From: Candidatus Fermentibacteraceae bacterium
GTDB lineage: Bacteria > Fermentibacterota > Fermentibacteria > Fermentibacterales > JCC-6
Assembly (NCBI GenBank): GCA_021162285.1
Contig: JAGGYZ010000299.1
Coordinates: 1-45,528, forward strand
DNA length: 45,528 bases
Direction: 5' to 3'
Below, piece after piece: positions 26,308 through 37,336 of the stretch. The notes below the pieces were generated by a model that made no database searches, had not been told where the DNA came from, and saw only the letters and a list, made by a program, of their open reading frames with translations. The number at the start of each line of letters is the position of its first letter. Position 1 is the stretch's first letter. Made by a program: the position numbers and the translations under genes.

Positions 26308-27347
26308 TCTTCAACTCTTCTCAGGAGTGTTCTGCTGTTAAAAAGGGCCTCTGCCCTGTTTCTGGCCTTTGTGTACATTACAGCTCTCATGGTTTCCGAT
26401 TCTTCGAAACGAGCAACGACTCTGCACAGATCAGACGAATCACCCGGGGTAAAAAGAAGACCCGTTTCACCGTGGCTGTTCACCCACGACACACCTGTAG
26501 GAAGGTTGCTGCTTATCACCGCTGTTCCACAGGCCATTGCCTCAACCTGCACCATTCCAAATGCCTCGCTGCGCTGAGTGGAAGGAAGGATCAAGGCTCT
26601 TGCTCCCTGATACAGTGAAACGAGCTCTTCGTCTGAAACATTGCTAACAACGCTTACAGGTAAATGGTGTTCCGCGATGAAAGTGTTTACCTTGTTCACC
26701 AGCCCGCCTCCACCGGCCAGTATAAGATCCGGAGGATTCGCCATTTTCCGCCATGCATCCAGAAGAACAAATATGCCTTTGTACCTTCTGAACCTTCCCA
26801 CAAACAGATAGTAGGTCTTCCCTGCGGCTTCGTCTGGCTTGAACCGCTCCAGATCTGTTCCAATGGGAATCGTCCGTGTGTTGCGCAGGTTTCTGAGGTA
26901 CCGTGAGGTTCGGATGTAGTTGTCCGAGGAGACAATCACCCTGTGGGCTCCTGCCAGAAATCTTGCAAGGACAGGGCCATAAACAGGCATCACAAAAGCC
27001 TGGCGAACTATATCGCTGTGGTAGGTAACTACATACGGTCTCTTCTTTTTGAGCACAGTCCAGGCAAGAACAGCACTGGGCAGCGGAAGGTGAAAATGAA
27101 CTACATCCGCATCTGTCTCCGAAAGAAATCTGCTGAATCCAGGTGCCACAGGATTTGAAAGCACCCGGACGGGAGACCACACACCTTTAACAGCCAGTCC
27201 GTTGACATCTCTGTTTCCACCACCAGCAACCAGAATTTCCACACAGTGACCTCTGGAAACAAGAAACTGTGACAGATCATGGATGTAACGCTCGATTCCG
27301 CCGTGAACCTCAGGAAATACATCTTTGTACACCTGGAGAATTTTCAC
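26280..27347 (-). CDS. Glycosyltransferase family 4 (GT-B)
   Basis: 355 aa. MKILQVYKDVFPEVHGGIERYIHDLS N-terminus and the E-x7-E region SEAFGMVQVEAMACGTAVISS. GTGA overlap with the upstream GT4. Confidence 0.8.
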   Translation of the reverse strand: MKILQVYKDVFPEVHGGIERYIHDLSQFLVSRGHCVEILVAGGGNRDVNGLAVKGVWSPVRVLSNPVAPGFSRFLSETDADVVHFHLPLPSAVLAWTVLKKKRPYVVTYHSDIVRQAFVMPVYGPVLARFLAGAHRVIVSSDNYIRTSRYLRNLRNTRTIPIGTDLERFKPDEAAGKTYYLFVGRFRRYKGIFVLLDAWRKMANPPDLILAGGGGLVNKVNTFIAEHHLPVSVVSNVSDEELVSLYQGARALILPSTQRSEAFGMVQVEAMACGTAVISSNLPTGVSWVNSHGETGLLFTPGDSSDLCRVVARFEESETMRAVMYTKARNRAEALFNSRTLLRRVEECLTEATGI

Positions 27348-28378
27348 TGAAATGCCTTCCCGTAAGCCCGGTATGTGTTCTCGGCCATACTTTTACACGT
27401 AAATCTGCCGGCAAACTCACGAAGCTCTTCAGTGTTCTGCTTTTTTTCAAGGGCATTCAGAACAGCTTCCGCTATGGATTGCGGTGTTCCACCGGAAACT
27501 GCTGCAGCCACAGACCCATACACCTCCAGAAGCGTTTTCGCAGGTCCGACCACAAACGGAACTCCGGAAGCAGCAGCTTCCAGAGGAGGCAGACCAAACC
27601 CTTCATAAAGTGACGGATAAACAAGCAGCTTCGCGCCTGAGAATACGCTTGAAAGCAGATATTCATCAACAGATCCAATCCACTTGACACCAGGAGTATT
27701 CGCCAGCGCGTCTTTCGTTTTCTTTTTTCCCCAGCCCCATCTGCCTGCAACCACCAGAGTCATTCCCGGATGTATCCGTCTTATCTGCGGCCAGGCTTCC
27801 AGCAGGGCGTCTATATTCTTTCTAGGCTCAATCGTGCTTGTTGAAAGTATGTAATCTCCGGTTATTCCGGATGTTCTTCTGAACAAAGCGTCGGAAGCAG
27901 TGTTCTCTGGTGCCGAAAGGTAAACCCGTGTTGATGAAAGACCCAGGTACTTCCTTATTTCCGAAACCGTAAAATCACTGTCTGCTATTACAACAGAAGC
28001 TCCAGCAGCAACTCGGGGAAAATGAAACCTGTAGTACAGCGATCTGAGAACCGGGAACCAGCCGGGTTGTGCCATAAAAGCCATATCGTGAACCGTTACA
28101 GCGTAGGGCATGCCACCTGGAACAGCTCCGGCAAAAGCAGGAAGGTGTGCCAGATCGAAGTGTTGTTTCCTGAGAACACGGCGTAATCCCATGTGTTCTG
28201 AAATAAATTTTCCCGGGTAACCCGATCCAGGCGATCCAACTGGAATAACTTGTGAAATCCCCGCCTTCTGAAACCCTTCAATCAACCTTGCTGTGTAAAC
28301 ACCGGTGCCTCCCCTGTTGGCTGTGGAAGATGCATACAGAGCTATCCGTCTGTTATATCTCCGCAACAGAATCGTCAC
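27344..28378 (-). CDS. Glycosyltransferase family 4 (GT-B)
   Basis: 344 aa. RIALYASSTANRGGTGVYT N-terminus and YEGFGLPPLEAAASGVPFVVG. GTG start, so the exact start is uncertain (26-nt overlap with the upstream gene). Confidence 0.78.
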   Translation of the reverse strand: MTILLRRYNRRIALYASSTANRGGTGVYTARLIEGFQKAGISQVIPVGSPGSGYPGKFISEHMGLRRVLRKQHFDLAHLPAFAGAVPGGMPYAVTVHDMAFMAQPGWFPVLRSLYYRFHFPRVAAGASVVIADSDFTVSEIRKYLGLSSTRVYLSAPENTASDALFRRTSGITGDYILSTSTIEPRKNIDALLEAWPQIRRIHPGMTLVVAGRWGWGKKKTKDALANTPGVKWIGSVDEYLLSSVFSGAKLLVYPSLYEGFGLPPLEAAASGVPFVVGPAKTLLEVYGSVAAAVSGGTPQSIAEAVLNALEKKQNTEELREFAGRFTCKSMAENTYRAYGKAFQ

Positions 28379-29333
28379 CTGTGTTCAGCCTGGCCGGGGT
28401 CCCCTGTACAACTGACCTTTCCCCGATAATCGATTCCTTCAGCATCACATGCCTGAACTGTGAACCGCTCCCGGCAATTGTGTTCGAAATTACCGAATTC
28501 TCTATGTGAACATCGGCACCGCATGAAAACCACGGGCCCACAACAGAGTTTCTGATAACAGTTGCCTCACCGAAGAAGCACGGAGCAACAACCACGGAAT
28601 TCTCAAGAACAGGAGAACCCGAACTGCCGTTCTTCTCCAGAAGTACCCTGTTGGTCTCCAGAAGTGTTTCCGGTTTACCGCAGTCAAACCACCCGTCTAT
28701 ATCCAGTATTCCAAAGGGTTCTCCGTTTTTCAGCATAAGCTGCATGGCATCTGTGAGCTGGTACTCTCCCCTTGTTCTGAGCTGGTTTTCCTTCAGGTAA
28801 CGGCAGTTCTCCATTATCTTTTTTCCACTTGAGAAGTAGTACACACCTACTATGGCCAGATTGCTTACAGGCTCTGAAGGTTTCTCCACAAGCTCTGCAA
28901 CTCTGTCTCCATCCATAACGACCACACCGAACCTTGAAGGATCTTCCACGGGAGATGCCACAATCATGTTCCTTGTTTCTCCACGGAGTACAGCCAGGTC
29001 TGCTGAAAACAGTGTATCACCCAGAACCACCATCAAAGGACCGTCTTCAACGAACGGTTCCGCCAGCAAAACCGCGGAAGCAAGACCGTCGGTCTCTTTC
29101 TGAACTGCAAAATCTATTCTTATCCGGGGGTATTGTTTCCGGGCCCAGGAAACTATGGTGTCTCCGAGATAACCAGTTATCAGTGTAATGTGATCCACAT
29201 CAGCATCAAGAAGTGAATCTATCACATGGGCAAGAACCGGTCGCCCTGCAACCGGAATAAGGGGTTTAGGCAACGACCACGTAAGCGGCCTCATTCTGGT
29301 TCCTTTGCCGGCGGCAGGTATTATACAGTGCAT
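28353..29333 (-). CDS. Sugar-1-phosphate nucleotidyltransferase with C-terminal left-handed beta-helix
   Basis: 326 aa. MHCIIPAAGKGTRMRPLTWSLPKPLIPVAGRPVL, VEKPSEPVSNLAIVGVYYF, and C-terminal hexapeptide-like repeats (NSVV..., NSVI...). Confidence 0.8.
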   Translation of the reverse strand: MHCIIPAAGKGTRMRPLTWSLPKPLIPVAGRPVLAHVIDSLLDADVDHITLITGYLGDTIVSWARKQYPRIRIDFAVQKETDGLASAVLLAEPFVEDGPLMVVLGDTLFSADLAVLRGETRNMIVASPVEDPSRFGVVVMDGDRVAELVEKPSEPVSNLAIVGVYYFSSGKKIMENCRYLKENQLRTRGEYQLTDAMQLMLKNGEPFGILDIDGWFDCGKPETLLETNRVLLEKNGSSGSPVLENSVVVAPCFFGEATVIRNSVVGPWFSCGADVHIENSVISNTIAGSGSQFRHVMLKESIIGERSVVQGTPARLNTGDDSVAEI

Positions 29334-29338
29334 TGAGA

Positions 29339-31102
29339 TCAGCCTCCTGTTTTCCAGTCATTCTCATCAAGCAGAATTTCAGGATATTTTCCTATTACAT
29401 AAGAGTGAACAAGTGCTCTGACACCAAGACCTGTTTCCGTTACAAGGGACTTCTCAGCCATTTCACGGGCGGCATATGTGGTAACAACGCCAATCATCTT
29501 CTTTACATCAGGTATAAGAGACGGTGCAACACTCAGCTCATCCACTCCAAAGCCGATCAAAAGGGGAACGGCCAGGGGGTTACCGGCCATGGAACCGCAC
29601 ACTCCAACCCATTTTCCCTGACTGTGACAAAGTCTGACCACGGTATCAATCTGGCGAAGAACTGCCGGATGGAATGAATCGTAAAGATCGGCCACCCTGG
29701 GATTCCCCCGGTCAACTGCCAGAGAATACTGCGTGAGATCGTTGGTTCCTATGGATACAAAATCCGCGTAGGGCAGCATAAGATCCAGAGCAATAACTGT
29801 TGCTGGCGTTTCCACCATTATCCCTACCTGCATGTCATTGTCGAATGCAATCTCATCTGCACGCAATTCATCCTTTACTTTCTCAAGCAGGTCTCTCAAT
29901 CTGCGCAACTGTTCCACATGGGTAACCATCGGAAACATCAGCCGTATGTTACCGTGAACGGAAGCTCTTAGAATAGCTCTCAGCTGAATCGAGAACTCCT
30001 GGGGTCTGTCAAGACCAATTCTCACAGCACGGTAACCCAGGAAAGGATTGGCTTCCGGTGCAGAATTCAGCCCAGTTCTGAATTTGTCTCCACCCATATC
30101 GTATGTTCTTATTATCACAGGTTTCGGTTTCATCCGGGAAGCCACTGTGTCGTAAATGGTAAAATGGTCTTCCTCATTCTCACCATTTTCCTGAATAAGC
30201 CTGAGAAATTCGGTTCTGAACAGACCTATTCCATCAGCCCCGAGTTTGTTCACAAGCTCTACCTCATATGGTAGCTCTATGTTTGCCGCCAGCTCTATTC
30301 GAACACCGTCTTCGGTAACTGCAGGCTCCTGATTCATTTTCTGAAGCAGTTTCTCGGCTTTCTGGAATTTTTTCTTGACACCGGCATAGTACCGGAGCTC
30401 ATCTTCAGTGGGATTAACAATTACATGCCCGTGTATACCGTCCACGATAAGCACATCACGGGGATTTATTTCTGTTGTAATCTTCTGAAGGCCAACCACG
30501 GCTGGTATACCGAGAGCACGTGCTAGAATGGTTGTGTGGGAAGTTCTTCCTCCCATGTCTGTAACAAAAGCCAGTATCTGCCCGGGTTTTAATCCGGCAG
30601 TTTCAGATGGATCAAGATCTTTTGCCACAAGAACCACAGGCTCCTGCAGCTTATCGAGAACATCCTTTTCCGTACCTGTAAGCTTCTCAATAACCCGACG
30701 GCCGACATCTCTTACATCTGCAACCCTTTCACGGATGTATGGGTCGGCCATAACCTCGAATTTATCCATAACACCGCGGATCGCTGTGCTTACTGCATAC
30801 TCTGCATTAACCAGTCCACCCAGAATTCTGCTTTCAACATCTCTCTTTATTGTTGGATCCTGAAGCAGAAGCAGAAGGAATTCAAGAATCTGACGACCTT
30901 CAACAACATCTTCCATGGTATCCGCAATGTTTTCAAGATCGTGACGAACGGAAGATATGGCGACTTGAAACCTCTTAACCTCAAGTTCAGCCTGTTCGGA
31001 CGACTCGAGAAGCCGCTTTGCGTGCCTCAGCTCTTCAACCTTAAGAAGAAAAGCCGATCCGATGGCGATACCGTGTGAGGCGGGAACACCTTTGAAAAAC
31101 AT
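29339..31102 (-). CDS. ptsI: Phosphoenolpyruvate-protein phosphotransferase (PTS Enzyme I)
   Basis: 587 aa. MFFKGVPASHGIAIG, phospho-His region DMGGRTSHTTILARALGIPAVVG, and C-terminal PEP-utilising domain FVSIGTNDLTQY. Confidence 0.92.
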   Translation of the reverse strand: MFFKGVPASHGIAIGSAFLLKVEELRHAKRLLESSEQAELEVKRFQVAISSVRHDLENIADTMEDVVEGRQILEFLLLLLQDPTIKRDVESRILGGLVNAEYAVSTAIRGVMDKFEVMADPYIRERVADVRDVGRRVIEKLTGTEKDVLDKLQEPVVLVAKDLDPSETAGLKPGQILAFVTDMGGRTSHTTILARALGIPAVVGLQKITTEINPRDVLIVDGIHGHVIVNPTEDELRYYAGVKKKFQKAEKLLQKMNQEPAVTEDGVRIELAANIELPYEVELVNKLGADGIGLFRTEFLRLIQENGENEEDHFTIYDTVASRMKPKPVIIRTYDMGGDKFRTGLNSAPEANPFLGYRAVRIGLDRPQEFSIQLRAILRASVHGNIRLMFPMVTHVEQLRRLRDLLEKVKDELRADEIAFDNDMQVGIMVETPATVIALDLMLPYADFVSIGTNDLTQYSLAVDRGNPRVADLYDSFHPAVLRQIDTVVRLCHSQGKWVGVCGSMAGNPLAVPLLIGFGVDELSVAPSLIPDVKKMIGVVTTYAAREMAEKSLVTETGLGVRALVHSYVIGKYPEILLDENDWKTGG

Positions 31103-31375
31103 CTAAATCATCTCTTCGCCGAAGCCGCTTCTGATTACCTCCGCTACAACCTCCACAGCTTCAGCCTCATCAGATCCGTCTGCAGAAACAACAATTTCAG
31201 TGCCCCCGGAGGCTGCCAGGGTCATTACTCCCATGATACTCTTTGCATTGACTTTGTCCGCAGGGCTTTCCACCCACACATCACTGACAAACTCCACAGC
31301 AGCTCTTACAATCAGTGCGGCTGGACGGGCATGTATCCCCAGTTTGTTGGGAACAACCACCTTTATCTCTGTCAT
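31103..31375 (-). CDS. ptsH: Phosphocarrier protein HPr
   Basis: 90 aa. GIHARPAALIV (His-15 context) and VNAKSIMGVMTL (Ser-46 context, the HprK target). Confidence 0.9.
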   Translation of the reverse strand: MTEIKVVVPNKLGIHARPAALIVRAAVEFVSDVWVESPADKVNAKSIMGVMTLAASGGTEIVVSADGSDEAEAVEVVAEVIRSGFGEEMI

Positions 31376-31376
31376 A

Positions 31377-32342
31377 TTATTCTCTCAGCCTTTTTCTGCC
31401 CATACGGGCAATGAGTTTCCTGTTAAGCCGTTCAGCAGATGTACTGCCAGTATCCTTGGCCTGAATATTCATCATCGCGGCAACTTCGAGAAGCAGTGTA
31501 ATATTCCTGCCTGGAAGCACTGGTATCTCCACCATGGGAACGCCAACTCCCAATATACTCATGTGTTTGTCTTCAAGCCCTGACCGGTCTGCCTCATCGT
31601 TGAGATCAGTGTCAAACAACCTGACCACAAGATCCACCGACTGCATCTCCTTGATCGAACCGACACCAAACAGTTCTGCAATGTTCACAAATCCAATTCC
31701 TCTTATCTCCATATGAAATCCAAGCATTGCATCCCCGGAACCAATCAGACGATTACCTGTTTTTCTTACCCTGACAAGATCGTCTGCAACCAGCCTGTGC
31801 CCTCTTTCCACCAGACCCAGAACAGCTTCGCTCTTTCCTATGGCACTTCTTCCCATAACAAGAAGACCTTCACCGTAAACATCCACTAGTGTTCCATGAA
31901 GAGAAACATGAGGTGCAAAAACTTCGCTGAAAAAATCAGTCAGATCGTGTATCAGAGGCGTTGTATCCAGCGGAGAAACAAACAATGCGGAACCGGAAGA
32001 GCGCGAGGCTGAAACAAGTTCTTCGGGGGGAGAAAGACCTTTTGTAACAATGCTGCACACAACGGGAAAACTGAAAACAGTCTTCACGGCAGCCTGTCTT
32101 TCCAGTGGAGAAAGCTGATTAAGCAGTGTAATTTCAGTCTCGCCAAATATCTGGATTCTGTCGTGCATGAACTTGTAGGTATACCCGGAAAGACACAGAC
32201 CGGGACGGCTGATATCCGGGGACACGACCATACGGTCGTATCCCCATGTATCAGTCATGTCTTCAAGCTGAAGCCTTTTCCGCAATTGCTCATACATCAC
32301 ACCTACAGAAAACACTTCCGGATCAGGGTAGCGATCCAACAC
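31377..32342 (-). CDS. hprK: HPr kinase/phosphorylase
   Basis: 321 aa. Walker A and signature GRSAIGKSEAVLGLVERGHRLVADD, plus MEIRGIGFVNI. GTG start, so the exact start is uncertain. Confidence 0.88.
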   Translation of the reverse strand: MLDRYPDPEVFSVGVMYEQLRKRLQLEDMTDTWGYDRMVVSPDISRPGLCLSGYTYKFMHDRIQIFGETEITLLNQLSPLERQAAVKTVFSFPVVCSIVTKGLSPPEELVSASRSSGSALFVSPLDTTPLIHDLTDFFSEVFAPHVSLHGTLVDVYGEGLLVMGRSAIGKSEAVLGLVERGHRLVADDLVRVRKTGNRLIGSGDAMLGFHMEIRGIGFVNIAELFGVGSIKEMQSVDLVVRLFDTDLNDEADRSGLEDKHMSILGVGVPMVEIPVLPGRNITLLLEVAAMMNIQAKDTGSTSAERLNRKLIARMGRKRLRE

Positions 32343-32347
32343 CTTTT

Positions 32348-32896
32348 CTATTCCTTGCGTGTAAGCTCAACAACCTGAGTAGCACCGCTGGAAGTTCTGT
32401 ATGCAGCGCTGAAGCTGTTCGTTTCAGTGTTGTAGAATACAAGGTTTCTGTCGTCACCGTTTACCTCGAACTCGGTCATTGCATCGTTGGTTGAAAACCT
32501 TTTTAAAACGGCAGCGTCTTCCAGAAGAACCGGGGACGTAAGCTCCGATGGTTCTGCCGCAATGTACCACGCACCGGAAACGGGATTATTGCCGTTGTTT
32601 TCCCTGTGAGGATGGTCATGATGGGTTTCTTTGAATTTCCTGAGCTGCCTTTCGAGAGAAGAAACGCAATCATCGAAAGAAAAATACATATCATGTCCCT
32701 GTGCCCGGGAATCGAGTTTCAATCTGTCTCCCCGCAACTGAACATGCGATCTACTCATTCCTGACGAAAGCTCAAGAACAACATGAACATCATCGATTCC
32801 GTCGTAGAATTTGTCCAGAACGGACAGTTTTTCATCAACGTGTTCCTTCAGGGAATCGGTTATTTCAAAGTGTCTTGCGCTGATCTCCACGTTCAT
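32348..32896 (-). CDS. hpf: Ribosome hibernation promoting factor, long form
   Basis: The ORF track starts at 32911. ATG 32894-32896 is preceded by AAAGGAG at ideal spacing. MNVEISARHFEITDSLKEHVDEKL... is the sigma-54 modulation / S30AE N-domain. A C-terminal dimerisation-type domain is present (182 aa in total). Confidence 0.88.
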   Translation of the reverse strand: MNVEISARHFEITDSLKEHVDEKLSVLDKFYDGIDDVHVVLELSSGMSRSHVQLRGDRLKLDSRAQGHDMYFSFDDCVSSLERQLRKFKETHHDHPHRENNGNNPVSGAWYIAAEPSELTSPVLLEDAAVLKRFSTNDAMTEFEVNGDDRNLVFYNTETNSFSAAYRTSSGATQVVELTRKE

Positions 32897-33116
32897 GGTA
32901 ACTCCTTTCATGTTAAACAGAAGCCAAACTAAATGCCACCCCTCCCGAACATGCGGGAAAAGCGGCTACATAAGGTTTGACTTCCAATCTCACATTTCGA
33001 TAATAGCCCGGGGAGGGCATTCGGTCAATACCTGTGCCTGTTTACCCCAGCCCTGTTAATCGTTATTTTCAGGCTGACAATTTCATATTTACTACACAGC
33101 ATCGAAAGGAATTACT

Positions 33117-34808
33117 TTGCAGGATTACACTGAACTCGGCGAGCTTGGTTTCAGAGGGGGTCTTGAGACCCATCAGCAGCTCGCAACATCCGGAAAGCTG
33201 TTCTGCCGGTGTTCAACAAGGATCCGTAACGATAAACACGACCAGGAAATCCTCCGTCACATGCGCCCTACACTCAGTGAATTTGGAGAGTACGACGGAA
33301 CCGCCCTCATGGAATTCAAAACAAAAAAACAGGTTCATTATCTGCTTTACAACGATTCCGTGTGCACCTATGAAATGGATGACACACCGCCTTTTCAGGC
33401 GAATCCTGAAGCTGTAAGCATTGCATTGCAGCTGGCCATGATGTTCAACATGTCTCTGGTTGACGAAATTCATATAACACGCAAACAGTACCTGGACGGG
33501 TCTATTCCAACTGGTTTTCAACGAACTGCAATTGTAGGAGTTAACGGAGTTATTCCGTTCCTCGGACGAGAACTCCACTTCATACAGATGAGCATGGAGG
33601 AAGACGCCTGCCGCGAGGTTTCCGATGTGGGACACGATGTTGTGTTCCGCACAGATCGCCTTTCCATACCGCTTGTTGAGCCGGTAACAGCCCCGGAACT
33701 CTACACACCTCACGAGATGGCGGTTGCTGCAAAACTCATAGGCGAAACCATGCGCTCTACACACCTGGTCAGAAGGGGAATAGGCTCTGTGAGACAGGAT
33801 GTGAATGTGTCTATCAGAGGTGGTACAAGGATTGAGATAAAAGGTGTAGCCAAAATAGGCTACATAGAATCTCTTTCCAGAATCGAGGCCTACAGACAAA
33901 AGGCACTGCTTGACCTGCGGCATCAGCTGAAAACTTCCGATTTCACAGCAGACCGGCTGAAACAGGAGTACTCTGCTCTCAGCAGAGTTGAAGCTGCCGG
34001 TGAAAACTTCAGCCCCGATAGTCTTGAATCCAGACAGCACATTGCAGCAGTGATGATTATTCCAGGATTCAGGAAATTCATCAACTGGCCGACACAGCCT
34101 GAGCGTACATTCCTTGACGAACTTCGGGGACGGGTAAGGGTTATTGCGTGCCTGGAGTATCAGCCCGTTCTTAACTGCGCTTCAGACATGCTTCGATCAA
34201 CCATGGGAATCTCCCCCGACGACGCGGCGATGGTGTTTGCCGGTCCGGAGGAAGATCTTCAGACTGCAGCCAACGAGATCTGTATCAGAATACAGGAAGC
34301 ATTCCTTGGCGTTCCTCCTGAAACCAGACAGGCACAACCAGGCGGAACAACCGATTTTGAAAGAATTCTTCCAGGGGCAGACAGGATGTACCCTGATACA
34401 GATCTCCCGCCACAGGCTATTGCACCGGATACATTTGAAAGGTTGCAGAAACTGCTTCCTGAAAAACCCTGGGACAGAAGAGACACCTACAGGAAACTGG
34501 GGCTCAGTGAACACCTCATCGATCGGCTGCTTAATCTGGAGCTGTGCGATGTGTTCGACGAACTGCTGTCGAGAACAGAGTTCAGACCAGCTCCACTTGC
34601 CAGCCTGCTGGCTGACCGGATGCGCGGTTCTAGACGAGAAGGCAAAGACTGGATGAAAACACTTACGGAAAACGGGGTTCGAGACGCACTGACATGGTGC
34701 TTCGAAAACGGTATCAGCACCACAGGAGCCCGATACATTCTTGACTGGATGTCTCTGAATCCTTCAGATACACCGGAGGCAGCCTTCGAGGCGGTAAAAC
34801 CGGCCTGA
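33117..34808 (+). CDS. GatE-type (archaeal-type) Glu-tRNA(Gln) amidotransferase subunit E homolog
   Basis: 563 aa, TTG start with AAAGGA 6 nt upstream. GLETHQQLATSGKLFCRC, MRPTLSEFGEYDGTAL, CTYEMDDTPPFQANPEA, RKQYLDGSIPTGFQRTAIVG, MEEDACRE, VVFRTDRLSIPLVE and RRGIGSVRQDVNVSIRGGTRIEIKGV follow GatE signatures rather than GatB (which has RKNYFYPD.PK.YQISQ). No gatD is present in the window. Confidence 0.75.
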   Translation: MQDYTELGELGFRGGLETHQQLATSGKLFCRCSTRIRNDKHDQEILRHMRPTLSEFGEYDGTALMEFKTKKQVHYLLYNDSVCTYEMDDTPPFQANPEAVSIALQLAMMFNMSLVDEIHITRKQYLDGSIPTGFQRTAIVGVNGVIPFLGRELHFIQMSMEEDACREVSDVGHDVVFRTDRLSIPLVEPVTAPELYTPHEMAVAAKLIGETMRSTHLVRRGIGSVRQDVNVSIRGGTRIEIKGVAKIGYIESLSRIEAYRQKALLDLRHQLKTSDFTADRLKQEYSALSRVEAAGENFSPDSLESRQHIAAVMIIPGFRKFINWPTQPERTFLDELRGRVRVIACLEYQPVLNCASDMLRSTMGISPDDAAMVFAGPEEDLQTAANEICIRIQEAFLGVPPETRQAQPGGTTDFERILPGADRMYPDTDLPPQAIAPDTFERLQKLLPEKPWDRRDTYRKLGLSEHLIDRLLNLELCDVFDELLSRTEFRPAPLASLLADRMRGSRREGKDWMKTLTENGVRDALTWCFENGISTTGARYILDWMSLNPSDTPEAAFEAVKPA

Positions 34809-34822
34809 CAGAGGAATGAAAA

Positions 34823-37336
34823 TTGAGAATTGACATACTCAAAGCTCTGCTTGAGAACTCAGCTATGCTCGCTGTATCATTTTTATTTCTGACTCGACTG
34901 TTCAGATGGAGGGTTAGAAAACCGGTTATCACCATTCTCATTCAGGGTCTGGTGTTTGCCGCATGCGGTGTTCTTGCAATTCTGTTCAGTGTTGAAGTAC
35001 TTCCAGGCGTTCTTATAGATATGCGTGCTCCTGTAATTGTAGTAGCTGCCCTTACCGGTGGCTACATTGTTGGTTCCATAGCAGTAATTCCGCTTCTGAT
35101 AATAAGACTGTCCATAGGTGGCACCGGAATGCTGCCTGGAATAGGTATTATTTTATCGGCTCTTCTTTTCGGGCTTTTCCTCAGACAGGCCGAGAAGTCA
35201 AGATTCCGAGTGTCTGCTGTTCTCTTTCAACTGGTTGCCGGATTCGGTTCAGCAGCAGTTTACATTGCATGGATATTTGTTCTTCCCGATTCAATTTACA
35301 TACAGGTACTCAATCTGGTGGCTCTTCCCCTGACCATTGTCTCCGTTCTCTCCATAGTTGCAATATTCTTTATCAGAAGCAGGGAAAACGCCCATCTGCT
35401 TCTTCTGGGAAAACTCACCGAGAGCAACAACCTGTTTGAAGAGATCTCGCTGGATAAAAACATAGGAATTCTTGTTTTGCGCGGTACCAGCATAATCTAT
35501 GTAAATCAATCTCTTATTGATAAATACGGCTTCAGAAGATTCGATGAGAAGAACCGGGACCTCTACAAAATCGTAGACGAAGATTCACAGATCAGAATAG
35601 AAAAGTTTCTCAGACAGACACTTTCATCAACACAGGGTGAACCCGTTCAAATGGATATCTCTTTGAAAAACAGAGGTTCACTGCATTTTCTTGTTCACGC
35701 GAGAAAACTTGTTTACAAGGGTGAGAATTCCGTTCTGGTCGTTCTGGTAGACATCTCAAAGCTTATCAAAACAGAGATAACTCTCCAGACCAGACTTGAT
35801 CAGCTGCAGCTGGCTCTTGAAGCCTCCGGGGCGGTGATCTGGAATGCTTCACCGGAAACTGACTACCTCAATGCAGACAAAGAATTTTTCGAATCCATGT
35901 CTTACACACCACTGCAAAATCCTCCAAGCTTTTCCACATGGGTAAAAAATCCTGTGCTTTCAGAGGAGGTACAAGATAAGCTGAATAAGCTGGCTTCCGG
36001 CAGAATTGACAGCTTTTTCGGTGAGGTCAACTGCAAAGGTGATGACTCCATTTCAAGATGGTTTAACATCGGGGCAATTGCAAGGGGAACCCCCCGGGCA
36101 ATCTCAGGAATTCTCTTTGATACTACGGTTATCAAGCAGAAGGAACTTTCTCTTATGCAGCAGAAAATTGACAGCATTCAATCTCAGAAAATGGAGGCAA
36201 TCGGCCGCCTTGCCGGTGGAGTCGCACATGACTTCAACAACCTTCTGCATGTAATAATTGGCTACTGCGATATACTGGACAGGGTCTCAGACCACGATCC
36301 TGTTATCACAGATGTTTCAAAACCCATTCTTGAAGCGGCCGAAAAGGGAAGGGAACTTGTGAAAAGCCTGCTTCTGTTCAGTAGAGACAGAAAACCACAA
36401 CTTCAGAATGTAAAAATCAGTGCTCTTACAGGTAGATTTTTCAAACTGCTTTCAAGAATTATGGAAGAAAACATCGTAATTACCTCGGATATCACCACCC
36501 TTGATACCTGGGTCTACGGAGACCCGTCACAGATAGAGCAGGTTTTCATGAACCTGTGTGTAAACGCAAGGGATGCAATGCCTCTTGGTGGAGAGCTGAA
36601 CATTGCTCTTAAAGAAATTTCCATAATTGAACCGCTTTCTGTAACAAGCGGTACTATCCAGCCGGGAAACTATGCAGCAATTACGGTAACAGACACTGGT
36701 CCGGGAATCCCGGAAAACAATCTGGAAAATATATTCGAGCCTTTCTTTACAACGAAACAACTTGACGGCGGCACCGGGCTTGGTCTTGCAACTGTTCTTG
36801 GAGTTGTCAGAGAACACTCCGGATACATCAATGTGAGAAACAGAACCGGTAAAGGACTTGAGATAACAGCTTACTTCCCTGCTCTGGAAGTGGATCATCT
36901 GTACCATCAACCGCCAGAAACCGCAACGATCCCCTTGAAACAGATTAACTCTGAGGTTACCCGTGGTGTTTGCATCCTTCTCGCTGAAGATGACCACCGT
37001 GTAATGACACTTGCTGTGGAGGGGCTTGGAATGGCCGGGATAACGGTAATCCGGGCAAAAAACGGCATAGAAGCTGTAGATGTTTTCAAGAAAAGACACA
37101 ACGAGATTGAAATGCTTGTGTTTGATGTAATGATGCCTGAAATGAGCGGACCGGAGGCTTACAGGGAGATCATCGCTCTCGGTGCAGAAGTTCCGGTTGT
37201 ATTCACAACAGGTTACGCAGGTGACCGGCTCCTGGATATGAAAGAAACACCCGAGGTTCTGAGCAAGCCCTATGCAATAGGTGATCTTGTGTCCATAATA
37301 CGCAGGATGACAGGTTCCGAAAAAGGAGAAACATGA
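34823..37336 (+). CDS. Hybrid sensor histidine kinase (5TM LytS-type membrane sensor, PAS, HisKA, HATPase, C-terminal receiver)
   Basis: 837 aa, TTG start with GAGGA upstream. N-terminal 5-6 TM region with the 5TMR-LYT-like motif LIDMRAPVIVVAALTGG. H-box AGGVAHDFNNLLHVIIGY. N/G boxes (NLCVNARDAMP, DTGPGIP, GTGLGLA). Receiver ILLAEDDHRV...FDVMMPEMSG...KPY. Confidence 0.85.
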   Translation: MRIDILKALLENSAMLAVSFLFLTRLFRWRVRKPVITILIQGLVFAACGVLAILFSVEVLPGVLIDMRAPVIVVAALTGGYIVGSIAVIPLLIIRLSIGGTGMLPGIGIILSALLFGLFLRQAEKSRFRVSAVLFQLVAGFGSAAVYIAWIFVLPDSIYIQVLNLVALPLTIVSVLSIVAIFFIRSRENAHLLLLGKLTESNNLFEEISLDKNIGILVLRGTSIIYVNQSLIDKYGFRRFDEKNRDLYKIVDEDSQIRIEKFLRQTLSSTQGEPVQMDISLKNRGSLHFLVHARKLVYKGENSVLVVLVDISKLIKTEITLQTRLDQLQLALEASGAVIWNASPETDYLNADKEFFESMSYTPLQNPPSFSTWVKNPVLSEEVQDKLNKLASGRIDSFFGEVNCKGDDSISRWFNIGAIARGTPRAISGILFDTTVIKQKELSLMQQKIDSIQSQKMEAIGRLAGGVAHDFNNLLHVIIGYCDILDRVSDHDPVITDVSKPILEAAEKGRELVKSLLLFSRDRKPQLQNVKISALTGRFFKLLSRIMEENIVITSDITTLDTWVYGDPSQIEQVFMNLCVNARDAMPLGGELNIALKEISIIEPLSVTSGTIQPGNYAAITVTDTGPGIPENNLENIFEPFFTTKQLDGGTGLGLATVLGVVREHSGYINVRNRTGKGLEITAYFPALEVDHLYHQPPETATIPLKQINSEVTRGVCILLAEDDHRVMTLAVEGLGMAGITVIRAKNGIEAVDVFKKRHNEIEMLVFDVMMPEMSGPEAYREIIALGAEVPVVFTTGYAGDRLLDMKETPEVLSKPYAIGDLVSIIRRMTGSEKGET

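Follow-up and report, generated by a model that had tools for sequence, protein, structure and literature searches.

The stretch of DNA considered here, referred to below as the window, comprises 45,528 nucleotides of contig JAGGYZ010000299.1 from a metagenome-assembled genome (MAG) of a Candidatus Fermentibacteraceae bacterium in the phylum Fermentibacterota. It carries a gene for GatE, one of the two subunits of the tRNA-dependent amidotransferase GatDE. In this phylum GatDE alternates with asnA, the gene for aspartate-ammonia ligase, across genomes and at one chromosomal slot, and this alternation tentatively suggests an enzyme of asparagine supply. The gene itself is annotated as follows.

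33117-34808, + strand: gatE, the short "form A" of the gene, 563 aa; assigned by a TIGR00134 match above cutoff, by PDB alignments and by an AlphaFold model.

The open reading frame (ORF) begins with a TTG start codon, and an AAAGGA ribosome-binding site lies eight bases before it. A sequence-only reading of this DNA had recognized GatE signature motifs in the translation and had preferred GatE to its bacterial relative GatB. The motifs are indeed there, and profile searches settled the choice of family in the same direction. The ORF scores 396.3 bits against TIGR00134 (gatE_arch, cutoff 319.55) and 451.6 bits against NF003107 (GatE), just below the cutoff of 456, with 154 bits to Pfam GatB_N. 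No GatB model gives more than 120 bits, where the cutoffs are 314 or higher (119.6 against 338 for the best of them and 110 against 314.8 for TIGR00133), which places the protein outside the GatB family, and the partner GatA is also absent from the genome. In PDB alignments, a span from query residues 5-9 to 542-553 corresponds to residues 5-537 of the Methanothermobacter thermautotrophicus GatE (619 aa, 2D6F_C) and to residues 8-559 of the Pyrococcus abyssi GatE (633 aa, 1ZQ1_C). The AspRS-like insertion that is specific to GatE aligns to the insertion in both structures (query residues ~271-400). An AlphaFold model of the protein (pLDDT 86) has 1zq1_C and 2d6f as its top fold matches (TM 0.71-0.78), with GatB structures far behind. 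His15, Glu157, and Glu184 are the Mg ligands of the M. thermautotrophicus enzyme, and their mutation kills it (PMC2330236); H19, E161, and E188 of the query align to them. A check on active-site conservation, which had been proposed along with the original assignment, thus came out in favor of GatE. Form A retains 130 of the 133 columns that are conserved at ≥95% in 81 other GatEs, Mg ligands included, and the three exceptions are trivial. Only two weak bacteria-specific substitutions, at positions 253 and 422, lie near the active site. Among form-A sequences, dN is 0.135 against a saturated dS of ~2, which indicates strong purifying selection. The ORF at 33117-34808 is a real and intact GatE and not a GatB, and the short, unlinked form to which it belongs is a conserved lineage that appears functional by every sequence test.

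Where this GatE departs from the family is at its C-terminus. The cradle domain, the AspRS-like insertion, and the helical domain (helices 437-560) are all present, and a tail of ~64 aa is missing. The profile match ends at position 555 of 622 with no PF02637 hit, the protein stops at about residue 560 of the solved 619-633-aa archaeal GatEs, and the other 79 full-length GatE rows run a median of 64 residues beyond its end. The earlier suspicion that the YqeY-like region was cut short is therefore confirmed, and that region is incomplete here. The C-terminal helices that remain in form A have a dN/dS of ~0.13-0.2. In archaeal GatE, contact with the tRNA D-loop is made by the tail of the YqeY-like region (PMC2330236). 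The gatE stop codon is genuine, as 14 nt separate it from the start of the next gene, which codes for a membrane histidine kinase.

34823-37336, + strand: hybrid sensor histidine kinase, beginning 14 nt past the gatE stop; no tail-like coding sequence follows gatE.

Two possible substitutes for the tail were considered and rejected. A tblastn search of the genome with 70 GatE tails gave noise only, a hit on contig C320 corresponding to no real ORF, and a stand-alone YqeY protein (PF09424) is absent from the phylum (0/70 genomes).

The host MAG consists of 347 contigs totaling 2.7 Mb and is 95% complete with 4.4% estimated contamination. Its GatD hits lie on contigs C102, C7, and C224 and none falls in the window, as had been noticed earlier; the partner gene is on C102 instead. 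That gene (G000:C102:5005-6207, 478 bits) comes immediately after rpoN, which is to our knowledge a gene of bacteria only, and its catalytic motifs TGGT, HGTD, and K262 are invariant. The genomes closest to the query are Candidatus Sabulitectum, Hyd24-12, and Fermentibacteraceae MAGs. A closed relative of 2.52 Mb (G005) carries both genes, with gatE and gatD 455 kb apart. In this lineage the GatD locus is translocated behind rpoN, separate from gatE. A gene of the PF04008 "adenosine-specific kinase" family (162 aa, 226 bits; L001:2778-3266, on G000:C102) overlaps the gatD stop codon by 4 nt, and this single-copy family follows gatD in all seven other form-A genomes checked. It was rejected as a form-A-specific partner because the family occurs in 69/70 phylum genomes whatever their GatDE state, which makes it a mere neighbor. 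One form-A genome (G065; 5 contigs, 88% complete) has gatD and the PF04008 gene with no detectable gatE, gatE remnant, or asnA, so that either its gatE lies in an assembly gap or the genome is in a GatD-only state. The query assembly also contains a tRNA-SeC(UCA) gene and two identical copies of tRNA-Asn, each on a different contig.

The phylum survey covered 70 Fermentibacterota genomes, 46 of which were counted as high-quality. GatE was found in 58/70 (56 above cutoff) and GatD likewise in 58/70; both occur in 56 genomes and neither occurs in 10, and across the phylum the two subunits are kept or lost together. Loss has been clean, without remnants, in four genera, and no remnant of gatE was found in five genomes without GatE. 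Two forms can be told apart. Form A matches profile positions 5-555, has ~563 aa and no PF02637 hit, and is unlinked to gatD, and form B is a full-length GatE with gatD directly downstream. The gene has been kept at the same bacterial locus in two taxonomic families, the closed genome G005 included. Among the options raised by the sequence-only reading was a GatE working with a distant GatD. The gene on C102, the phylum-wide co-occurrence and co-absence, and the monophyly of form A in both subunits all speak for that option. The reading had also named a scenario that would undo its case, a GatB-fold protein living alongside a full GatCAB. This scenario does not apply, as GatB is absent from the phylum (0/70) and neither GatA nor GatB was found in the query genome.

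The synthetase complement of these genomes bears directly on what GatDE is for. GlnRS is present in the query genome (735 bits) and in 46/46 high-quality genomes, and AsnRS is present in the query genome (cut by a contig end) and in 45/46. The host without GlnRS, in which Glu-tRNA(Gln) transamidation is needed, is therefore not what is found here, and because both synthetases are present, GatDE is dispensable for decoding Gln or Asn in Fermentibacterota. The query is thus a GatE family member that lacks one defining feature, the tail, and one contextual feature, a host without GlnRS. GluRS is single-copy in the phylum, which disposes of a second, tRNA-Gln-specific GluRS, and glutamine synthetase occurs in 70/70 genomes, which disposes of GatDE as a replacement for missing glutamine synthesis. 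No bacterial-type AspRS was found (0/70), and the sole AspRS is of archaeal type. The genes glnS and gltX lie side by side in one taxonomic family of Fermentibacterota (G005:C1:1577449-1580474; G001:C23), and the same arrangement is seen in GatDE-bearing Ignavibacteriales, Aminicenantes, and Thermoanaerobaculia genomes (G070, G071, G074).

A pointer to function comes from asnA. The gene is found in 7/70 genomes, all seven among the 10 without GatDE, and in 0/60 with GatD or GatE. It occurs in 5/5 high-quality GatDE-less genomes, and the three GatDE-less genomes without it are 61-84% complete. A naive Fisher test of GatDE against asnA gives p = 1e-7. On a GlnS species tree the switches are scattered, and sister pairs at a distance of <0.1 differ. 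There are nine independent pairs with a difference in GatDE; in six of them asnA shows the opposite difference, and in none does it change in the same direction (p = 0.031). The alternation is positional as well. In three genomes (G027, G034, and G031) the gene order is kinase, sigma-54 regulator, gatE, gatD, hpf, hprK, ptsH, ptsI, and in three genomes of a different genus (G017, G024, and G038) it is regulator, asnA, hpf, hprK, ptsI. A slot between family F7 and hpf-hprK-ptsI is thus occupied by asnA or, in sister genomes, by gatE-gatD. The boundary of the slot is hpf (family F3, flanking gatD or asnA in G027, G034, G017, G024, and G038), and the query gatE sits at that same boundary. The asnA gene in the slot is a true aspartate-ammonia ligase (302 bits, above cutoff). 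The corresponding features of the window are these.

32977-33004, + strand: sigma-70-like promoter candidate for gatE (TTGACT, 16 nt, GATAAT), 10/12 matches in a consensus scan only.
32348-32911, - strand: hpf, ribosome hibernation factor, 49% identical to family F3.
31377-32342, - strand: hprK, HPr kinase/phosphorylase, second in the conserved block of flanking genes, with 50% identity to family F4.
27018-31363, - strand: ptsH, ptsI, a nucleotidyltransferase (F5), a glycosyltransferase (F6), and F13, placed by tblastn of F12, F1, F5, F6, and F13.

The block hpf-hprK-ptsH-ptsI-F5-F6-F13 of the window is collinear with the form-B and asnA loci. The neighbors had already been described as bacterial, and a chimeric or archaeal contig had been named as a possible flaw in the case; because hpf, hprK, ptsH, and ptsI are bacterial and the whole phylum has kept the block, the contig is neither a chimera nor archaeal DNA. 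The promoter candidate falls in the 205-nt divergent region between gatE and hpf, where neither an Rfam element nor a leader peptide rich in Asn or Gln was found. More generally, no leader peptide with Asn or Gln codons, T-box, or riboswitch was seen upstream of gatE or asnA, so that no such element points to either amino acid.

This pattern has a precedent in bacteria with GatCAB. AsnA-bearing genomes use AsnRS and not GatCAB, which amounts to an exclusion between AsnA and GatCAB acting as an Asp-amidotransferase (PMC2330236), and bacteria that have AsnRS, GlnRS, and an amidotransferase make asparagine on tRNA by means of the amidotransferase (PMC4206432). Both asnA and any AsnB-like gene are missing from 15 GatDE genomes, closed G005 included. 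The alternation with asnA, in distribution as well as in position, points to asparagine and away from glutamine. What is new here is the phylum-wide either/or of GatDE and asnA at one chromosomal slot, together with a GluRS that looks discriminating and an AspRS that looks non-discriminating.

The evidence from the two synthetases is as follows. An Arg occupies the position of R358 of the Thermus thermophilus GluRS in 20/20 phylum genomes and in 5/5 GatDE genomes of other phyla. The substitution R358Q turns the T. thermophilus enzyme non-discriminating (PMC2978374), and with the discriminating Arg in GluRS, Glu-tRNA(Gln) is not expected here. For the sole AspRS, the closest enzyme is T. thermophilus AspRS2, deposited as non-discriminating (364 bits, versus 272-277 for the discriminating Thermococcus kodakarensis AspRS), and the position of T. 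kodakarensis K85 is occupied by a Pro. This AspRS of the phylum has a 5-residue insertion in the anticodon-binding L1 loop, and its gene in the query genome lies at G000:C196:16393-17673. The tRNA-Asn and tRNA-Asp differ at pairs 2-71 and 4-69, and the D-loop of tRNA-Asp is one base longer.

The query belongs to a much wider group of bacterial enzymes. Relatives of this GatE occur in >590 bacterial species-representative genomes, the best 80 of which are all labeled bacterial and come from many phyla, and NCBI annotation already names these bacterial homologs GatE. A 2022 review places GatDE in archaea only (PMC9499178), and nothing on bacterial GatDE was found in the searchable literature. 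Outside form A the GatE proteins are ~611-660 aa long, and gatD lies within the fetched flanks in 56/74 loci, nearly always immediately downstream. A conserved third operon gene was sought across 80 loci and none emerged. In a tree of 95 GatE sequences, only four of them archaeal rows, the classic archaeal GatEs are set off by a long branch, and the favored constraint has one bacterial clade with the Thermoplasmatales-type archaeal GatE outside it (AU p = 0.89). The picture of an isolated archaeal transfer, for which the earlier reading had proposed a phylogeny, gives way to a bacterial clade beside the Thermoplasmatales-type enzyme. That the latter locus is archaeal was verified from genes for TBP and Trm56 on the same contig. 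In this closest verified archaeal relative (Thermoplasmatales MAG contigs L112-L114) gatD and gatE are divergent neighbors, and the locus holds a tRNA-Gln with the classical A1-U72 next to TBP and Trm56. Form-A sequences are monophyletic for GatE (100*), with a long stem of 0.71, and for GatD (100*), with a shorter stem of 0.31. A union of form A with the form B of genus g2 is not rejected (p = 0.13), and a single origin of all Fermentibacterota GatE copies is rejected (p = 7e-81). The operon moves horizontally, as phyla are scrambled in the GatE tree. In five GatDE genomes of other lineages (Ignavibacteriales, Aminicenantes, Zixibacteria, Polyangiaceae, and Thermoanaerobaculia), GlnRS and AsnRS are both present, and in no genome tested is bacterial GatDE the sole decoding route.

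Comparison with known systems helps to place the enzyme. It shares with the archaeal GatDE of M. thermautotrophicus (2D6F) and P. abyssi (1ZQ1) the two-subunit family, both GatE and GatD passing curated profiles, as well as the cradle, AspRS-like insertion, helical domain, and Mg ligands of GatE and the asparaginase-type triad of GatD. In contrast to these enzymes, it is found in a bacterial host with GlnRS, its genes are unlinked, and ~64 C-terminal residues are missing. Its host has a tRNA-Gln with U1-A72, not the A1-U72 of archaea, and a GluRS that looks discriminating, and the phyletic behavior of the enzyme is that of an asparagine pathway. A second point of reference is GatCAB with the non-discriminating AspRS2 in Thermus thermophilus and Deinococcus radiodurans (asparagine transamidosome, PDB 3KFU) and GatCAB in Bdellovibrio. 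Like those bacteria, the host combines AsnRS, GlnRS, and one amidotransferase without asnA, with exclusion between the amidotransferase and AsnA, and as in Thermus its AspRS is of archaeal type and closest to AspRS2. Unlike in those systems, GatDE takes the place of GatCAB here, the archaeal-type AspRS stands alone and is not a second copy, tRNA-Asn has G1-C72 instead of U1-A72, and AsnB-like genes are present in many genomes. The form-B gatE-gatD operons of Ignavibacteriota, Zixibacteria, Acidobacteriota, Myxococcota, Gemmatimonadota, and others fall in the same bacterial clade as the query. The resemblance to them extends to sequence (GatE 45-53% and GatD 61-67% identical), to the coexistence of GlnRS and AsnRS (5/5), and to the discriminating Arg of GluRS (5/5 genomes tested). 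In form-B operons GatE has its tail and measures ~640 aa, and gatD follows immediately downstream, whereas this lineage has a tail-less protein of 563 aa with gatD behind rpoN and a long stem.

From the family identity and intactness of GatE, its partner gene, the distribution of the pair, and the alternation with asnA, we infer, with a probability of roughly 0.45, that GatDE here supplies Asn-tRNA(Asn) and so provides asparagine in a tRNA-dependent manner. GatE would be the kinase and transamidase subunit of a bacterial-type GatDE and would work with the glutaminase/asparaginase subunit GatD encoded on C102. The archaeal-type, non-discriminating-like AspRS would put Asp on tRNA(Asn). GatD would then release ammonia from Gln or Asn, GatE would phosphorylate the side-chain carboxyl of the mischarged aminoacyl-tRNA at the Mg site formed by H19, E161, and E188, and amidation by GatE would yield Asn-tRNA(Asn), a conversion carried out by GatCAB in Thermus, Deinococcus, and Bdellovibrio. 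Some residual activity on Glu-tRNA(Gln) may remain. Because the elbow-reading tail has been lost, the short form would have to choose its tRNA via the acceptor arm. A fuller scenario asks for more and is put forward more tentatively. It holds that GatDE passed from a Thermoplasmatales-like archaeon to bacteria and then acquired a different or broader substrate, and that the enzyme of Fermentibacterota is an Asp-tRNA(Asn) amidotransferase interchangeable with AsnA, whose tail-less form selects tRNA without the elbow.

A number of observations weigh against asparagine supply. The archaeal enzyme is strictly specific for Glu-tRNA(Gln) and rejects Asp-tRNA(Asn), and modeling indicates that its insertion domain would clash with AspRS (PMC2330236). 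Several findings concern the tRNAs and AspRS of the phylum itself. The tRNA-Asn has G1-C72, the same first pair as tRNA-Asp, and not the U1-A72 by which GatCAB recognizes its substrate. The classical amidotransferase signature is found instead on the glutamine side, where tRNA-Gln has U1-A72 and a 7-nt D-loop and tRNA-Glu has G1-C72 and 8 nt. A rule for AspRS discrimination, K85P/W26H, was reportedly set out by Feng et al. in 2003. When a switch in the AspRS specificity residues was looked for where asnA replaces GatDE, none was seen, and the Pro signature is unchanged in asnA genomes without an amidotransferase; because it persists there, either the AspRS rule fails here or mischarging is tolerated. 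Asparagine may also have another source, as AsnB-like genes occur in 47/70 genomes, the query included, although they score about equally well as polysaccharide-type amidotransferases and their role is ambiguous.

Other points against it come from outside the phylum, where genes of glutamine metabolism are found beside GatDE. In a Myxococcota MAG (L053:5786-5857) and a Mesoterricola MAG (L063:5830-5904), the region 120-170 nt upstream of gatE holds a tRNA-Gln(CUG) gene, and these are two of only five tRNA genes in 898 kb of loci. A Gemmatimonadota contig (L081) has the order gltX-gatE-gatD-glnS, and on a Myxococcota contig (L065) glnS is divergent from gatE. A glutamine synthetase paralog stands directly upstream of gatE-gatD at three further loci (L074, L090, and L091) and within Fermentibacterota as well (G026:C125:6930-11280). 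GatB is present in two of the five other-lineage GatDE genomes. The exclusion between asnA and GatDE is not universal either, since two loci have both in one co-oriented cluster. In these clusters asnA is adjacent to gatD-gatE in Zixibacteria (L084, 3346-7428) and to gatE-gatD in Phycisphaerae (L060, 4335-7410), and they could be displacement intermediates or a combined asparagine-supply operon. Taken together, the counter-evidence fits an enzyme of dual or lineage-dependent specificity at least as well as a pure asparagine enzyme.

Four other explanations have to be considered. The canonical reaction, conversion of Glu-tRNA(Gln) to Gln-tRNA(Gln) as in archaea, would make GatDE a back-up for GlnRS or a means of cleaning up GluRS mischarging, for example when free glutamine is scarce. 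Conservation of family function argues for it, as the nearest archaeal relatives (GatE 48% and GatD 66% identity) must be Glu-amidotransferases, and so do the tRNA-Gln at the Thermoplasmatales locus, the identity elements of the host tRNA-Gln and tRNA-Glu, and the tRNA-Gln, glnS, gltX, or glutamine synthetase genes beside gatE-gatD in other phyla. We consider it the main rival, though less likely than asparagine supply, given a single-copy GluRS with the equivalent of Arg358 in 25/25 genomes checked and a GlnRS that has never been lost from a high-quality GatDE genome, and it offers no reason for the repeated same-site alternation with asnA. Dual or lineage-dependent specificity, in which different phyla exploit one activity or the other, overlaps with asparagine supply, is distinct where both activities would matter in vivo, and accounts for neighborhoods that are Gln-related in some phyla and asnA-related in others and here. 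As an explanation in its own right it seems rather improbable, since with a GluRS that looks discriminating the Gln activity would have no substrate in this phylum.

Loss of the domain that contacts the tRNA D-loop invites a more radical idea, that the tail-less enzyme has become independent of normal tRNA recognition and has a new substrate, amidating free aspartate (and so acting as a Gln-dependent asparagine synthetase), a tRNA-like carrier RNA, or another carboxylate. The accelerated change of GatE, with its stem of 0.71 against 0.31 for GatD, would suit such a shift, and the alternation with asnA demands only that asparagine be the product. Yet the enzyme has preserved both the cradle for the CCA end and the full set of 130 conserved core positions, purifying selection still acts on the helical part of the YqeY region, and the full-length enzymes of form B likewise alternate with asnA, which together make a new substrate very improbable. 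A last alternative is a non-functional relic or an assembly or binning artefact caused by archaeal contamination. A MAG in 347 contigs with 4.4% estimated contamination and with gatE and gatD on separate contigs could raise that suspicion. It is effectively refuted by the strong purifying selection, by the recurrence of the same bacterial locus in two taxonomic families, by the closed 2.52-Mb genome with both genes, and by the position of rpoN directly upstream of gatD.

Reviews up to 2022 treat GatDE as an archaeal signature enzyme for Gln-tRNA(Gln), and this view feeds arguments about the last common ancestor of all life (LUCA) and about why GlnRS never entered the archaea. The existence of a large bacterial clade of GatDE, alongside GlnRS and AsnRS, raises the question of what the enzyme is for, and the Fermentibacterota data offer a testable answer in asparagine supply. 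Sister species with either gatE-gatD or asnA at one site constitute an unusually clean natural experiment, and the repeated alternation will need explaining even if the asparagine reading fails. The tail-less form is in turn a natural deletion with which to study how tRNA-dependent amidotransferases select their tRNA. If asparagine supply is indeed the role of GatDE in these bacteria, it would represent a third kind of asparagine-forming amidotransferase system and would overturn the views of GatDE as an enzyme of archaea only and of glutamine only.

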